Shown: one piece after another, positions 22,050 through 50,037 of the stretch | Layout of the letters: every line of letters begins with the position of its first letter | How positions within the stretch are numbered: the stretch's first letter is position 1 | NCBI RefSeq assembly: GCF_003018255.1 | Contig: NZ_CP027440.1 | Length of the DNA: 64,000 nt | DNA from: Escherichia coli | GTDB taxonomy: Bacteria; Pseudomonadota; Gammaproteobacteria; Enterobacterales; Enterobacteriaceae | Reading direction: 5' to 3' (one strand) | Notes under the pieces: model-generated | What the model saw: only the letters and a program-made list of their open reading frames with translations | Databases searched by the model: none | What the model was told of the DNA's origin: nothing | Made by a program: the position numbers and the translations under genes

Positions 22050-23402
22050 ATGACTAAACACTATGATTACATCGCCATCGGCGGCGGCAGCGGCGGTATC
22101 GCCTCCATCAACCGCGCGGCTATGTACGGTCAGAAATGCGCGCTGATTGAAGCCAAAGAACTGGGCGGCACCTGCGTGAACGTCGGCTGCGTGCCGAAAA
22201 AAGTGATGTGGCACGCGGCGCAAATCCGTGAAGCGATCCACATGTACGGTCCGGATTATGGTTTCGATACCACTATCAATAAATTCAACTGGGAAACGTT
22301 GATCGCCAGCCGTACCGCCTATATCGACCGTATTCATACTTCCTATGAAAACGTGCTCGGTAAAAATAACGTTGATGTAATCAAAGGCTTTGCCCGCTTC
22401 GTTGATGCCAAAACGCTGGAGGTAAACGGCGAAACCATCACGGCCGATCATATTCTGATCGCCACCGGCGGTCGTCCGAGCCACCCGGATATTCCAGGCG
22501 TGGAATACGGTATTGATTCTGATGGCTTCTTCGCCCTTCCTGCTTTGCCAGAGCGCGTGGCGGTTGTTGGCGCAGGTTACATCGCCGTGGAACTGGCGGG
22601 CGTGATTAACGGCCTCGGCGCGAAAACGCATCTGTTTGTGCGTAAACATGCGCCGCTGCGCAGCTTCGACCCGATGATCTCTGAAACGCTGGTCGAAGTG
22701 ATGAACGCCGAAGGCCCGCAGTTGCATACCAACGCCATCCCGAAAGCAGTAGTGAAAAATGCTGATGGTAGCCTGACGCTGGAGCTGGAAGATGGGCGCA
22801 GTGAAACGGTGGATTGCCTGATTTGGGCGATTGGTCGCGAGCCTGCCAATGACAACATCAACCTGGAAGCCGCTGGCGTTAAAACTAACGAAAAAGGCTA
22901 TATCGTCGTCGATAAATATCAAAATACCAACGTTGAAGGTATTTACGCGGTGGGCGATAACACGGGTGCAGTGGAACTGACACCGGTGGCAGTTGCAGCG
23001 GGTCGCCGTCTCTCTGAACGCCTGTTTAATAACAAGCCGGATGAGCATCTGGATTACAGCAACATTCCGACCGTGGTCTTCAGCCATCCGCCGATTGGGA
23101 CTGTTGGTTTAACGGAACCGCAGGCGCGCGAGCAGTACGGCGACGATCAGGTGAAAGTGTATAAATCCTCTTTCACCGCGATGTATACCGCCGTCACCAC
23201 TCACCGCCAGCCGTGCCGCATGAAACTGGTATGCGTTGGACCGGAAGAGAAGATTGTCGGAATTCACGGCATTGGTTTTGGTATGGATGAAATGTTGCAG
23301 GGCTTCGCGGTGGCGCTGAAGATGGGCGCAACCAAAAAAGACTTCGACAACACGGTTGCCATTCACCCGACAGCGGCAGAAGAGTTCGTGACAATGCGTT
23401 AA
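22050..23402 (+). CDS. gor: Glutathione reductase
   Basis: 450 aa, FAD motif GGGSGG and redox-active CVNVGC. Confidence 0.95.
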
Positions 23403-23408
23403 ATGTTA

Positions 23409-23439
23409 AAGGGCTAAGAGTAGTGTGCTCTTAGCCCTT
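23409..23439. terminator. Hairpin between convergent gor and dinQ, possibly a bidirectional terminator
   Basis: 12-bp stem AAGGGCTAAGAG/CTCTTAGCCCTT with 7-nt loop; no strong T-run. Confidence 0.5.
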
Positions 23440-23455
23440 AGCTACGTTTCCGCTA

Positions 23456-23539
23456 TCAGTTCAGAAGCTGAAGCAGAAAGCGGATCAGTTCCAGCAGCGC
23501 AATTAACGCCCCAAGAACGATGATTGCTTTATCAATCAC
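23456..23539 (-). CDS. dinQ: DinQ membrane toxin peptide (27 aa, GTG start), type I toxin
   Basis: Reverse-strand translation gives (V/M)IDKAIIVLGALIALLELIRFLLQLLN with SD GGAG 8 nt upstream of GTG; a LexA box lies upstream. Confidence 0.8.
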   Translation of the reverse strand: MIDKAIIVLGALIALLELIRFLLQLLN

Positions 23540-23730
23540 CCGTTTTCTCCATGCGATGGAGTGAGAATGCATCCGCTTACTCATCCACTGCCTGTCACGG
23601 CGCATGCCCCATTGTTAGATGTGGGCATTCTCACTCCGGCCAGAGCATCAGTTAACGGCACCACCCGTACTTCTGACCAGGACTTTGAAAGCGTTTATGC
23701 GCATTGCCAGAGTGAAAATGTCTCAGAGCT

Positions 23731-23750
23731 AACTGGATAATCATACAGTA
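23731..23750 (-). promoter_or_regulatory. LexA box (SOS box) in the dinQ promoter region
   Basis: aaCTGgataatcataCAGta fits CTG-N10-CAG with an AT-rich spacer. Confidence 0.7.
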
Positions 23751-23809
23751 CTTGCGGGTTATAAAACCAGCATGTCCTTGCAATAGTTTCAGTATGGTAT
23801 TAGCATTGA

Positions 23810-23894
23810 TGCGTTAGATGATGGCTATCTCACTCCAGTCAGAGCCACCAACTCAGGGCTGGAAAGTAAAAAACCGACGCAAAGTCGGTTTTTT
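23810..23894 (+). ncRNA. agrA: agrA-like small RNA (dinQ-homologous antisense repeat)
   Basis: Repeat unit sharing GCTATCTCACTCC with dinQ (antisense) and ending in terminator CCGACGCAAAGTCGG plus TTTTTT; ends approximate. Confidence 0.65.
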
Positions 23895-24043
23895 ACATCC
23901 GGATTCGGACAAGGCCTGGTACGGCAGCGACCCGATGAAAGTATATAAATCCTCTTTCACCAACATGTATAGCAAACTGTCCCTCCGCCAGCTGAAGAAA
24001 TCGCTAACGCTTGCAATGTTAGCCACTGGCTAATAGTATTGAA

Positions 24044-24128
24044 CCGTTAGATGTGGGCATTCTCACTCCAGCCAGAGCCACCAACTCAGGGCTGGAAAGT
24101 AAAAAACCGACGCAAAGTCGGTTTTTTT
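24044..24128 (+). ncRNA. agrB: agrB-like small RNA (antisense regulator of dinQ)
   Basis: Second repeat unit; carries GCATTCTCACTCC exactly complementary to dinQ 23558-23570; same terminator hairpin plus T7. Confidence 0.65.
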
Positions 24129-24201
24129 ACGTCCTGATTCAGACCTCCTTTCAAATGAATACCCAACTCAAAATTCACACCTATTACCTTCCTCTGCACT
24201 T

Positions 24202-24280: not shown

Positions 24281-24634
24281 ATGTCATTTCTGTTACCCAT
24301 TCAACTGTTCAAAATTCTTGCTGATGAGACCCGTCTGGGCATCGTTTTACTGCTTAGCGAACTGGGAGAGTTATGCGTCTGCGATCTCTGCACTGCCCTC
24401 GATCAGTCGCAGCCCAAGATATCCCGCCATCTGTCATTGCTGCGTGAAAGTGGGCTATTGCTGGATCGCAAGCAAGGTAAGTGGGTTCATTACCGCTTAT
24501 CACCGCATATTCCAGCATGGGCGGCGAAAATTATTGATGAGGCCTGGCGATGTGAACAGGAAAAGGTTCAGGTGATTGTCCGCAACCTGGCTCGACAAAA
24601 TTGTTCCGCAGACAGTAAGAACATTTGCAGTTAA
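24281..24634 (+). CDS. arsR: Arsenical resistance operon repressor
   Basis: 117 aa, metal-binding ELCVCDLC motif in the HTH region. Confidence 0.95.
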   Translation: MSFLLPIQLFKILADETRLGIVLLLSELGELCVCDLCTALDQSQPKISRHLSLLRESGLLLDRKQGKWVHYRLSPHIPAWAAKIIDEAWRCEQEKVQVIVRNLARQNCSADSKNICS

Positions 24635-32379: not shown

Positions 32380-34362
32380 TTACCATTGATAACTCACGAA
32401 AATTTTTCCATTACGACCATCCTGTGGGATGCCTTGTGGCGACCAGTACTCTTTGTCGAAAGCGTTACCCAACACCAAAGTAGTGGTCATACCTTTGAGC
32501 GCCTGTTGTCCTTGATAACTGACGTAGAAATCATTCACGCCATAGCCTGGTTGTTTGCTGTAACTGCTGCTGATATGTGTTGAGCGATCGGCAAACGTAC
32601 CAACCCACCCAACAGAGAAGCCACTGTGAGCGATCGGAATATTCAGGGTGCTGGTAACGGTATCCGGGTTAATACTGGAGATATATTCGCCGGTATCGGT
32701 GTCTTTGCCGCGGGTACGGTTATAGGCCACATCAAGGCTAAACAGATCAGTGGTATATTTCGTCATCACATCCCAACCCCAGATTTTGGCGTTCGGGACG
32801 TTATACGACATAGTTGTCGCCGCCGCGAAATCGACGGTCGTGGAGATGTAATCCTTCGCTTTGGTATCAAAGTAGCTGGCTTTAAATTCCAGAGCATCAT
32901 TGGACAACATCAGGTCATCAAAACGCAGCCCAAAACCGTACTCCTGAGTTTCGTTAGTTTCCGGACGTAAGTTCGGGTTTGGCACCCAATAGTTGGTATA
33001 GAAGCGACCAATCGAGAAGTGCTTAGAATCGTTATACATTTCGCCCATCGTCGGGGCGCGGAATGCCTGAGCATATGAGCCAAATAACATCAGCCAGTTA
33101 GTCGGGTTGATAGTCATCCCCGCGCGAGATGACCATTTGTCGGCATCAACATCTTTGTAGCCGTCGCTGCTACCGCGATAACTGTCATAGCGGGTTCCGC
33201 CAAGCAGGGTAATCGGCAGATCGCGTAAGGTGATCTCATCTTGTAGCCAGCCAGAGCTAAAATCGATTTTTGCTTGCGGGAAGCCCGTCGTCGCGCCACC
33301 CGGATGTTGTTCCTGACGATAATACTCACCGCCATATGTCAGTAAGTGAGAAGCGAAACTGTCGGCAAATAGAGTGGAACGGTTCTCCAGCCTTGCTCCT
33401 TTTGTTATCTGTTCACGATACTCGCCGGAACTCCCCGTGTTTTGCGCATTAATACGGACTTCCGACCAGTAAATTTTTGCATCTGCATTTAACCAGTCGT
33501 TACCCTGCGGGGCGAGTTTATAAGAAAGCTGCGCATCGCGTTGAATTGTTGAACGATCGACCATCGGGTTGCTGCTATCAGAAGCTTCAACGGTCTGCGG
33601 ATTTTTTGGTTCACGCGCGTCGTTGTTGTAGTAACGCACTAAACCGCTCAGAGACTGAGCTGAATCAATTTGCCAGGTCCCTTTCGCCAGCATGTTATTA
33701 ATGGATTCGTCATTCGGCGCGGTTTCACCATTGCTCTGGCGTAAATCACCCCGATCGCGACTGGACCAGGCCACAATACCATCCAGATTTTCAGTTCGCC
33801 CAAACGCGCTCGCGCCTAATCCCAGGCTATGGTCCCCCGTGCCGCCAGTACCAAAGACACGAAAACCACTGCTTTGTCCTTCCTGCAATAAATCTTTTGC
33901 ATCGACCGTATCGTAGGAGATCACTCCACCCAGCGCGCCACTGCCATACAGTAATGCTGAAGGTCCGCGAACAATCTCAACACGCTTGATCAGCGCCGGA
34001 TCGAGAAAAGTGCCATTCAGGTGTCCGGTATCCGTTCCCTGGCGAACACCATCGACAAGAACCAGCACGCCGCGATGATCATAGCCACGCATATTTACAT
34101 CCTGACCGTTGGTTCGTCCGGTACCATCAAGAGTAATTCCAGGAACATGACGCAGCAGATCGGTGGCTGAAGTAGCCGTTTGATTTTCAGGAGCGGAAGT
34201 GTCGATGACGCTGACCATCATAGGCGCTTCGAAGGAACTACGGGCATTCCCCGTTGCCGTAACGGTCATGGTTTCAGTAGCAAAAGCAAACGTTGGCAAG
34301 GTGGCAGAAACAGCCAAAGCCAACAAACTCAAACGCAACGAGGTAAATTGCGGACGTGACAT
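32380..34362 (-). CDS. chuA: TonB-dependent outer membrane haem/haemoglobin receptor
   Basis: 660 aa; signal peptide, plug domain, C-terminal beta-barrel ending in aromatic residue (...YQW); SD GGAG 8 nt upstream of ATG. Confidence 0.9.
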   Translation of the reverse strand: MSRPQFTSLRLSLLALAVSATLPTFAFATETMTVTATGNARSSFEAPMMVSVIDTSAPENQTATSATDLLRHVPGITLDGTGRTNGQDVNMRGYDHRGVLVLVDGVRQGTDTGHLNGTFLDPALIKRVEIVRGPSALLYGSGALGGVISYDTVDAKDLLQEGQSSGFRVFGTGGTGDHSLGLGASAFGRTENLDGIVAWSSRDRGDLRQSNGETAPNDESINNMLAKGTWQIDSAQSLSGLVRYYNNDAREPKNPQTVEASDSSNPMVDRSTIQRDAQLSYKLAPQGNDWLNADAKIYWSEVRINAQNTGSSGEYREQITKGARLENRSTLFADSFASHLLTYGGEYYRQEQHPGGATTGFPQAKIDFSSGWLQDEITLRDLPITLLGGTRYDSYRGSSDGYKDVDADKWSSRAGMTINPTNWLMLFGSYAQAFRAPTMGEMYNDSKHFSIGRFYTNYWVPNPNLRPETNETQEYGFGLRFDDLMLSNDALEFKASYFDTKAKDYISTTVDFAAATTMSYNVPNAKIWGWDVMTKYTTDLFSLDVAYNRTRGKDTDTGEYISSINPDTVTSTLNIPIAHSGFSVGWVGTFADRSTHISSSYSKQPGYGVNDFYVSYQGQQALKGMTTTLVLGNAFDKEYWSPQGIPQDGRNGKIFVSYQW

Positions 34363-34651
34363 AGCGATTCTCCATGAGGAAAATAAAAAATGCTGGCTGC
34401 CTGGGTTAATACCGGGGTGGCTGGCGAAAAATAAATTTATTTAAAATTCAGAGCGATAATATTCGCCGGGTGAGTTTACAGGCGTTTATATCCCATGAAA
34501 TTGCCTGGTATCTCGGCAAATACGCAAAAGCACGCCCTCTTTGTCAGGCAAACCGATATGCCCCATCAGGAGTGAAGAGCGCTGTGCGTTACCCCTTGTA
34601 AATGATATGGCTTTGTTATCCATATGGCCGTATTTTGTTAAATGCAAACGT

Positions 34652-43945: not shown

Positions 43946-44283
43946 TCAGGACATAAGCAACTGAAATTGATGGCTGGCATGACGAGGGATGCAGATGCTG
44001 ATTTCATTACCCCCGGTGATTACTAAAGGAGAGGCGAAAACGACTTTATTCCCCTGGTATATGTATCCACCAGTAGAACCCTTCGTTGCCCGAATGCTGG
44101 CAGGAACTGTTGGCAGAACGGCAACATTTTTTTTGTCGTTGACCTCACCATGTCGATCACTGTGCCTGTATCCCACCTTACTGGCTGACAACCCCACTAT
44201 GCCGCTGGTCTGTAAATCCCTCATATCTCTCCTCGCGCGCAATTTAAAGAACCGTTATTTCTCAAGAATTTTCAGGGACTAAA

Positions 44284-49670: not shown

Positions 49671-49916
49671 GACTATCCCTTATATTTCATTGCTGCGATT
49701 ATTTCAATTTCAGTATACTAATGAAATGATGCCTGACTGTTTCTTAGCGCAAAAACTGCCAGATTTGGTAGGACCAAAATTTATCCACAAAGTAGTTTTG
49801 CATAACAGTTAATTGATAATAAGTAAATGCAACACGAATATATTTTCGCACAGCGTATAGCTTATGTTTATAAAAAAATGGCTGATCTTATTTCCAGTAA
49901 AAGTTATATTTAACTT

Positions 49917-50021
49917 ACTGAGAGCACAAAGTTTCCCGTGCCAACAGGGAGTGTTATAACGGTTTATTAGTCTGGAGACGGCAGACTATCCTCTTCCCGG
50001 TCCCCTATGCCGGGTTTTTTT
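49917..50021 (+). ncRNA. gadY: GadY small RNA, cis-antisense to the gadX 3' UTR
   Basis: Sequence ACTGAGAGCACAAAGTTTCCCGTGCCAACAGGGAG... matches GadY as recalled and ends in terminator CCCGG-N10-CCGGG plus TTTTTTT. Confidence 0.8.
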
Positions 50022-50037
50022 ATGTCTGAGTAAAACT

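Follow-up and report, generated by a model that had tools for sequence, protein, structure and literature searches.

The interval between gor and arsR in this Escherichia coli strain carries a very short reading frame on one strand and two closely similar repeat units on the other. It raises the question of what kind of locus this is, which of the repeat units, if either, silences the toxin, and where on the toxin mRNA it acts. In the window (the whole stretch of 64,000 nucleotides that was analysed), positions 23403-24144 correspond to the E. coli gor–dinQ–agrA–agrB–arsR locus and align end to end with the K-12 MG1655 interval, annotated in the same order as gor, dinQ (b4613, minus strand), agrA (b4712, plus strand), agrB (b4713, plus strand) and arsR. 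The flanking genes are gor (22050-23402, plus strand) and arsR (24281-24634, plus strand). The former, a 450-aa reading frame for glutathione-disulfide reductase (NCBIfam NF004776, 793 bits), is annotated gor or gorA at this place in K-12 and in the closest genome, and is the source of a duplicated fragment discussed below. Identification as dinQ/agrAB follows from the shared gene order, two matches to Rfam AgrB, a toxin_DinQ match above its cut-off and a LexA box identical to that of K-12. The locus is thus a known system, an already characterised DNA-damage-inducible toxin–antisense-RNA locus. It is highly probable (about 0.9) that the region is a chromosomal dinQ/agrAB type I locus in which agrB would be the working antitoxin and agrA a spare, and whose repeats and gor relic would come from an old duplication.

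The locus is nearly ubiquitous in the species, being found by megablast in 5,422 of 5,426 complete E. coli genomes, with a best match of 99.9% identity over 911 nt. The haplotype of the window belongs to a minority: only ∼95 of 5,493 records reach 99% identity to it over 23596-24090. When one genome per species was searched with an agr pattern of 24 specified bases, matches came only from Escherichia, one Hafnia and one uncultured bin, an exact-match search of this kind missing diverged homologues.

The toxin gene lies on the minus strand at 23456-23539, with a GTG start at 23539, a TGA stop and a Shine–Dalgarno (SD) sequence GGAG at 23547-23550. Its 27-aa product, VIDKAIIVLGALIALLELIRFLLQLLN, scores 54 bits against NCBIfam NF041472 toxin_DinQ (cut-off 30), is 100% identical to K-12 DinQ and corresponds to WP_001295215.1, annotated dinQ in the 99.9% identical genome. 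This is the hydrophobic DinQ peptide of ∼27 aa on which the DinQ/AgrB system is built. Upstream, a predicted LexA operator at 23731-23750 (TACTGTATGATTATCCAGTT, minus strand; LexA-type site 23732-23750, TACTGTATGATTATCCAGT) overlaps both the -10 hexamer TATGAT (23740-23745) and the transcription start. The site occurs once in the 64 kb, with 0.1 expected by chance, and is identical to the K-12 box, for which a heterology index of 4.83 has been published. The original prediction was right on both counts, the minus-strand 27-codon gene with its GTG start and GGAG, and the CTG-N10-CAG LexA box.

On the plus strand stand the two small RNA genes, agrA at 23814-23897 (101.1 bits; b4712 in K-12) and agrB at 24047-24130 (108.2 bits; b4713 in K-12). 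Both match Rfam AgrB (RF02891, gathering score 40) over its full length, 1-84. Underlying them are repeat units at 23798-23894 and at 24031-24127 with 91% identity over 97 nt; the hairpin CCGAC-GCAAA-GTCGG and a T-run after it are common to both, so that the two repeats of about 85 nt with a common terminator, as predicted, proved to be real ∼84-nt family members. In the predicted fold of each RNA (z -5.0 and -5.8), a free 5′ region precedes an internal stem-loop and an intrinsic terminator hairpin, the architecture of AgrB-family small RNAs; the agrB fold reaches -33.2 kcal/mol (z -5.0). A scan for consensus promoters and terminators returned no terminators and a single promoter-like site, which is antisense. 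The missed terminators are tentatively attributed to the extension of the stem by the A-run and T-run; despite the empty scan, the hairpins are backed by the Rfam model and by folding. Read from the sequence, putative promoters lie at 23778-23806 for agrA (-35 TTGCAA, 17-nt spacer, -10 TAGCAT) and at 24011-24039 for agrB (-35 TTGCAA, 17-nt spacer, -10 TAGTAT), in register at a spacing of 233 nt. Start sites have been mapped in K-12 by primer extension (PMC3567139), and the promoters and the +1 and +44 positions in the present strain are placed by register with K-12. The agrB gene begins 314 nt upstream of the dinQ +1 on the opposite strand and does not overlap it, as befits a divergent gene. 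A third copy of the agr 5′ region (33 nt) lies within dinQ at 23614-23646 and is 97% identical to the agrB copy and 82% to the agrA copy; alignment of the three units thus confirms a three-copy repeat. Two further reading frames were noted in this interval, one of 71 aa (23818-24033) that runs through agrA and the gor relic and contains KVYKSSFT, and one of 59 aa (23561-23740) antisense to the dinQ 5′ UTR; as genes, both were set aside and treated as by-products of the repeats and the relic.

How the antitoxin might act depends on the structure of the dinQ transcript. The published K-12 map was placed on the window through the terminator register, SL9 = A295-U325, which puts +1 at G 23733 and the +44 processing site at 23690, and gives a full-length transcript of 331 nt (23403-23733, minus strand). 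G1, U16-U19, GUG195, the terminator at 295-325 and all four regulatory elements fit this register. The SL9 hairpin itself (23409-23439, nt 295-325), common to the ends of gor and dinQ, is a 12+12 nt inverted repeat that folds at -19 kcal/mol (z -5.1) in the register given for SL9 (PMC5066626). Element 1 (U16-C28, nt 16-28, 23706-23718, UUUUCACUCUGGC) locks element 2 in the full-length transcript. Element 2 (nt 94-106, 23628-23640) is part of the AgrB target site (nt 88-119, 23615-23646), which also includes an 8-nt specificity segment at 23621-23628. Element 3 (nt 164-178, 23556-23570, GCAUUCUCACUCCAU; nt 167-178 = 23556-23567 in the published register) pairs either with element 4, closing the SD, or with element 2, leaving it open; it has the same sequence as AgrB nt 11-23 and is invariant among the 14 distinct dinQ transcripts compared. 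Element 4 (AUGGAG, nt 182-187, 23547-23552) contains the SD GGAG and forms with CUCCAU of element 3 the 3:4 hairpin (-6.2 kcal/mol). All four elements lie on the minus strand, and they can form the mutually exclusive 1:2, 2:3 and 3:4 duplexes of the published switch.

In K-12, this four-element switch has been worked out by SHAPE, compensatory mutants, in vitro (S30) translation and RNase III assays (Kristiansen 2016, PMC5066626). There, dinQ is repressed by LexA and the 331-nt primary transcript is translationally inert, since 1:2 pairing allows element 3 to sequester the SD; once the first 43 nt have been removed, element 2 becomes available and pairs with element 3, so that the SD opens and the 27-aa membrane toxin is made (PMC5066626). 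AgrB is expressed constitutively from the other strand; when its first ∼32 nt bind to nt 88-119, the SD hairpin forms again and the duplex becomes a substrate for RNase III (PMC5066626). Processing at +44, RNase III cleavage of the duplex and membrane toxicity are known only for K-12 (PMC3567139, PMC5066626). All parts of the K-12 switch are present in the window sequence. By analogy, LexA would repress dinQ and the primary transcript would be inert through the 1:2 lock; loss of the first 43 nt would allow 2:3 pairing, SD opening and DinQ synthesis; AgrB bound at nt 88-119 would take element 2, whereupon 3:4 pairing would re-close the SD and an RNase III substrate would arise.

Predicted folds agree with this scheme in part. 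The isolated 1:2 duplex has -19.7 kcal/mol and is found in the minimum-energy fold of the +1 RNA for both the window and K-12 alleles (nt 94-105 with 28-17), and the 2:3 stem is the optimum in a truncated RNA (nt 44-230). In the complete +44 RNA, the optimum pairs element 2 with nt 44-58, not with element 3, and therefore thermodynamic prediction alone fails to reproduce the open state. Structures containing 2:3 lie above the optimum by 7.6 kcal/mol in the +1 RNA and by 2.4 in the +44 RNA, and free +44 is predicted to have a poorly accessible SD (0.10 for the window, 0.22 for K-12). As the published open structure is absent from the full +44 fold, constrained ensembles and the truncated RNA were used instead.

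Allelic differences bear on the same structures. The window and K-12 transcripts differ at 12 of 331 nt; six of these differences fall in nt 106-113 and two more at nt 125 and 127, and the consequence is a longer 2:3 duplex and a longer SL3. The isolated 2:3 duplex consists of 13 perfect bp in the window (-22.4 kcal/mol; element 2 side 23625-23637) versus 9 bp with a wobble and a mismatch in K-12 (-16.9 kcal/mol). Stem-loop SL3 (nt 106-130, 23604-23628, minus strand) has 9 bp with one bulge in the extended form of the window and -10.2 kcal/mol versus -2.9 in K-12. In the window allele, nt 106-109 can pair either with nt 127-130, within SL3, or with nt 164-167, and since they can join SL3, the 13-bp form of the 2:3 duplex may not be adopted.

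Where does AgrB bind? The 13-mer GCATTCTCACTCC occurs three times, at 23625-23637 and 24057-24069 on the plus strand and at 23558-23570 on the minus strand, with 0.00 matches expected in shuffled sequences. Its presence within the dinQ transcript region at 23625-23637, claimed earlier, is confirmed by this motif search. The original prediction further held that the agrB 13-mer is complementary to dinQ at 23558-23570, and a direct pairing of AgrB at this place, adjoining the SD and blocking the ribosome, can be read from the plus-strand DNA, in which the 13-mers at 24057-24069 and 23558-23570 are indeed reverse complements. But dinQ is transcribed from the minus strand, and consequently its mRNA at 23558-23570 (nt 164-176) is identical, not complementary, to AgrB: both RNAs read GCAUUCUCACUCC. 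The complement, GGAGUGAGAAUGC, stands in the mRNA at 23625-23637 (nt 97-109). An AgrB that is identical to the SD-proximal element does not pair beside the SD. The duplex energies say the same, with -63.7 kcal/mol for AgrB and nt 80-125 against a scattered -18 for AgrB and the SD-proximal nt 150-200, and the published AgrB footprint is G88-A119, where AgrB displaces sequence 3 from sequence 2 (PMC5066626). Transcription of dinQ from the plus strand is incompatible with its reading frame, SD, LexA box and terminator. Pairing beside the SD is, on strand logic and duplex energy, rejected as extremely improbable. AgrB is a mimic of element 3 that competes for the upstream element 2; in co-folding with the dinQ RNA, it occupies element 2 and takes it away from element 3. 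The earlier idea of either intramolecular pairing or antisense competition was correct in spirit and amounts to the published model, the internal inverted repeat being the published 2:3 duplex (stem S2); only the pairing strands had been mixed up. The correction matters wherever the annotation is reused, as AgrB mimics the SD-proximal element and does not bind there.

The two small RNAs differ in how well they fit this target. AgrB forms 31 of 32 Watson–Crick pairs with dinQ nt 88-119 at -61.1 kcal/mol (-61 to -64 across predictions) and shares all eight variable nucleotides with the dinQ target. AgrA does not share them, and meets the window site with 5 mismatches and 1 G-U pair, at about -43.5 to -46 kcal/mol. 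This points to agrB as the probable working antitoxin of this strain and to agrA as a non-cognate spare.

Does this assignment extend to other strains? Besides 28 E. coli genomes, the comparison took in the loci of E. albertii, E. whittamii, Escherichia sp. E1V33, Hafnia paralvei and an uncultured bin. The dinQ 5′ UTR varies chiefly in two places, the 8-nt segment (mRNA nt 106-113; agr nt 7-14, at 24053-24060 in the agrB of the window) and the 3′ arm of SL3. In K-12, dinQ and agrB both read AAGAACTC and in the window both read GTGGGCAT: six concordant changes, with the agrA lying between them unchanged. The loci counted were chromosomal, with an intact dinQ promoter and the whole agr region on the contig; the uncultured bin (L006), whose contig ends after agrA, was excluded. 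One agr copy matches the resident dinQ site (-50 to -65 kcal/mol) in every such locus, 30 of 30 in the sample. The second copy, where present, is clearly worse, at about -40 to -50 kcal/mol, with the exception of E. whittamii, in which the two copies tie (-56.4 and -56.6 kcal/mol). In the 16 distinct haplotypes, 96.7% of duplex cells stay paired with the best-matching copy and eight duplex positions have changed on both sides, a result reached by 0 of 500 shuffles. The cognate copy being defined as the better-pairing of the two, the covariation count is biased upward and the 96.7% somewhat inflated. The other copy has 87.5% of cells paired, not above shuffles. In 13 of the 16 haplotypes, the duplex retains one C-A mismatch, between dinQ C96 and agr A24. 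SL3 shows compensatory pairs as well, at 109-127 (UA 9, CG 7) and at 113-124 (CG 9, UA 4, UG 3). The strain set thus supplies natural compensatory ‘mutants’ for both the AgrB–dinQ duplex and SL3.

The matching copy is not always in the same place. Among the sampled two-copy E. coli genomes, it occupies the agrB slot in 10, including K-12 and the window, and the agrA slot in 11, including O157:H7, IAI39 and E69. With one and the same pair, agrA = AATGGCAT and agrB = AAGAACTC, dinQ reads AATGGCAT in L025, L026, L028 and L029 and AAGAACTC in L030. For a further dinQ allele besides those of K-12 and the window, GACGACTA, AgrA would be the matching partner. In a plasmid homologue, a 4-nt mismatch abolishes antitoxin function and a compensatory change restores it (PMC12365149), so agr copies with five mismatches are probably inactive on the resident dinQ. 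It is tempting to propose, with a little better than even confidence, that the agr 5′ end, together with the dinQ target and the SL3 partner of that target, constitutes a co-varying specificity module with several alleles circulating in Escherichia, and that the two agr genes serve as an antitoxin repertoire with two slots. Within such a repertoire, strains would differ in the slot, agrB or agrA, that the dinQ target matches, a point to which we give a similar, slight preference. The slot pattern would then stem from exchange among the three direct repeats, by recombination or gene conversion, with selection against any dinQ left unguarded. If the two-slot reading is true, a dinQ allele carried by other strains has as its cognate partner the agrA that is ‘non-functional’ in K-12.

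These data also bear on whether AgrA, or both copies redundantly, could be the effective antitoxin in the present strain. AgrA is a full-scoring family member with its own promoter-like elements, the copy at its position is the better match 11 times among the 21 two-copy E. coli genomes of the sample, and in K-12, where the phenotypes of agrA and agrB deletions have been studied (Weel-Sneve 2013, PMC3567139), deletion of agrA raises full-length dinQ 3-fold (PMC3567139). However, the 5 mismatches of the window AgrA are clustered in the variable segment and make it ∼18 kcal/mol weaker than AgrB; the AgrA of K-12, which has a comparable deficit, leaves the SD open and does not inhibit translation (PMC5066626), and a 4-nt mismatch suffices to abolish function in the plasmid homologue (PMC12365149). 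A role for AgrA as the effective antitoxin here is very unlikely, and AgrB is retained as the probable one. The K-12-derived rule that agrB is the antitoxin and agrA is not suggests itself as allele-specific.

The same repeats are sites of rearrangement. Where agrA and agrB have recombined (IPCEC31, C8), a single chimeric agr remains and the gor relic is gone. Where the dinQ-internal repeat has recombined with agr (Ecol_656), 199 bp are lost, and with them the dinQ promoter, the LexA box, transcript nt 1-∼90 and an agr promoter, while the reading frame is still annotated dinQ. This deletion type was found in 9 of 60 evenly spaced matches, or ∼15% of genomes. In a sizeable minority of E. coli genomes, a promoterless dinQ is thus still annotated by pipelines as a toxin gene.

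The relic, here gor′, lies between agrA and agrB at 23917-23992 (plus strand) and is a decayed copy of gor 23133-∼23212 (codons ∼362-387). Positions 23919-23971 match gor 23135-23187 with 83% identity over 53 nt, at a local score of 61 versus a mean of 18.7 in shuffles (sd 2.2, max 29; z about 20). The original prediction had taken 23915-23985 for a copy of the 3′ coding end of gor. Its origin in gor stands; the matched piece is internal to the gene (codons ∼362-380) and here ends ∼215 nt before the stop codon. The relic is also present in K-12 (with a 4-nt deletion), E. whittamii (87%), strain SCPM-O-B-8794 and E. albertii, and is ancient. In E. albertii, downstream of a single agr, there remain a stretch of 19 nt that begins where gor′ does and the final 30 nt of gor including its stop codon, scoring 28 and 40 versus shuffle maxima of 24 and 27. 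Because both ends of gor′ are kept there, a segment from ∼23133 to the end of gor must once have stood downstream of agr, which upholds the earlier suggestion that the repeats arose by a local duplication including the end of gor.

Collectively, the three direct repeats and the gor relic appear to be products of an old duplication that extended from inside gor to just past agr. A tandem duplication of ∼784 bp (from gor 23133 to ∼24 nt past the agr terminator) followed by the loss of ∼550 bp, comprising the rest of gor′, the terminator and a second dinQ, would give the present layout. Alternatively, gor′ and the second agr copy could have arrived by single-crossover integration of a circle with a gor 3′ segment and dinQ-agr. 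The arrangement in E. albertii, in which the single agr is followed by the gor′ start, the last 30 nt of gor and then a hairpin unrelated to the gor/dinQ terminator, has the look expected of an original gor end with its original terminator, and speaks for such an event. Yet integration alone leaves the position of agrB inside gor′ in E. coli and E. whittamii unexplained, while a 784-bp unit and a ∼550 bp deletion account for it and fit the repeat spacings of 784, 233 and 199 nt; no donor element was found. Integration of a circle is a possible origin, which we hold with some doubt, and tandem duplication with partial loss is preferred.

What goes beyond the publications consulted is modest: the covariation of the specificity segment, the difference in slot between strains and the ancient gor relic. 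Literature searches on allele variation, cognate switching and the gor relic, with subscription journals outside their coverage, found nothing. Allele covariation and slot switching may be taken as a modest new lead, drawn from ∼30 genomes and predicted energies only.

Among known systems, the K-12 dinQ-agrA-agrB locus is the closest. Both occupy the interval between gor and arsR and agree in gene order and strand; the DinQ peptide, the LexA box and elements 1, 3 and 4 are identical, agrA is the same over the 82 nt annotated in K-12, and the terminators are the same. They differ in the specificity segment (mRNA nt 106-113), where 6 of 8 nt have changed together with the identical six in agrB, in the changes at nt 125 and 127 that lengthen SL3, in the stronger 2:3 duplex and in the better preserved gor′ of the window, which is without the 4-nt deletion of K-12. 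In Hafnia paralvei (L005), the layout is the same, with its own matched segment, GATTGCTG. The plasmid dql loci with their agrB-like RNAs (IncL/M, IncX3, IncI1 and others) share a small hydrophobic toxin, a long structured 5′ UTR, the four elements (PMC5066626, PMC12365149, PMC12317039) and a divergent small RNA whose 5′ end repeats part of the toxin 5′ UTR; agr-like matches occur in 517 plasmid records. A Dql-type peptide is distinct (dqlB is 41% identical to DinQ) and usually plasmid-borne, whereas the window encodes DinQ itself at a chromosomal, LexA-controlled locus, and so falls outside the dql group. In the one plasmid agr compared (L023), the 5′ pairing region is unrelated. The idea that a non-cognate chromosomal agr serves as anti-addiction against plasmid dql toxins was considered and is unsupported, given the unrelated 5′ region of this one example. 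The E. coli tisB/istR-1 system resembles dinQ/agrB in its LexA-controlled toxin, inert primary transcript and 5′ processing (+42 versus +44), and in a divergent constitutive small RNA that binds far upstream of the SD and leads to RNase III cleavage (PMC5066626); it differs in that IstR-1 acts by competition at a ribosome standby site, whereas AgrB re-closes the SD hairpin.

The proposed specificity segment of dinQ and the agr RNAs is 8 nt long and is found in the window at 23621-23628 in dinQ, 23820-23827 in agrA and 24053-24060 in agrB. Comparison across the loci L001-L031, which cover E. coli strains, other Escherichia, an uncultured bin, Hafnia and a plasmid, shows that this segment exists as several alleles. 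In the sampled two-copy E. coli genomes, the agr copy matching dinQ occupies the agrB slot in 10 cases and the agrA slot in 11. Strains can carry the same agrA/agrB pair and still differ in which slot dinQ matches: several match one slot, and one further strain matches the alternative. The AgrB:dinQ duplex contains a single C-A mismatch, between dinQ C96 (window 23638) and agrB A24 (window 24070), and this mismatch is kept in 13 of the 16 haplotypes. Both nucleotides are engaged within their own RNAs: C96 pairs with G26 in the duplex of elements 1 and 2 of the dinQ mRNA (the 1:2 lock), and A24 is paired inside the AgrB stem-loop.

Three E. coli haplotypes, IPCEC31 (L003), C8 (L020) and SCU-123 (L019), have one agr only. 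Recombination between agrA and agrB removed 233 bp from IPCEC31 and C8, including the decayed gor copy (gor relic) that separates the two genes; SCU-123 additionally lacks arsR and most of arsB. Another deletion, of 199 bp and running from the dinQ-internal repeat to an agr repeat, is found in E. coli Ecol_656 (L021 2290-2790; compare window 23646-23845). It takes out the dinQ promoter with its LexA box, transcript nt 1 to ~90 and the agr promoter; the promoterless ORF nonetheless carries the annotation ‘type I toxin DinQ’. The short match pattern seen in Ecol_656 recurs in 9 of 60 evenly spaced hits, i.e. ~15% of complete E. coli genomes.

Downstream flanks vary too. In E. albertii (L004 4050-4140), two gor pieces lie 3′ of the single agr: one begins where the E. 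coli relic begins, while the second comprises the last 30 nt, including the stop codon. Next comes a hairpin, GCCCGTTATATCGGGTTTT, that bears no relation to the terminator of gor/dinQ; beyond it, a HigB-like ORF takes the place of the ars genes. In E. coli CFSAN061770 (L022 1384-1947), a differently annotated regulator and then arsD lie 3′ of agrB; the ars operon occupying this site is of a different type.

Two plus-strand ORFs at the locus are probably not genes. One, of 59 aa (23561-23740), is antisense to the dinQ 5′ UTR, and its counterpart is a ‘hypothetical protein’ in RefSeq in several genomes (e.g. WP_001296816.1); the other, of 71 aa (23818-24033), crosses agrA and the relic of gor, reading in the frame of gor (…KVYKSSFT…). 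Elsewhere in the window, Rfam matches correspond to GadY (49914-50026, plus strand, 145.6 bits), the ES205 sRNA (44063-44134, plus strand, 105 bits) and the shuA/chuA 5′-UTR thermoregulator (34360-34391, minus strand, 60.1 bits), the last of which implies that this strain carries a chu locus for haem uptake.

Relatives of the system occur on a plasmid and in Hafnia. A 35-kb E. coli plasmid (L023) encodes two AgrB-family RNAs (1181-1268 and 3-85; 56.5 and 50.7 bits). Their stem-loop and the one in chromosomal agrA are identical; their 5′ pairing region, by contrast, is unrelated, and no target matching them was found in the 2.4 kb read. Hafnia paralvei (L005 3950-4460) has a dinQ-like locus with the peptide MSAFLDKAIMVLKALTVLLELIRQFID and a divergent AgrB-family RNA (76 bits). 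It shares the internal direct repeat of the E. coli dinQ locus and has a matched variable segment of its own, GATTGCTG.
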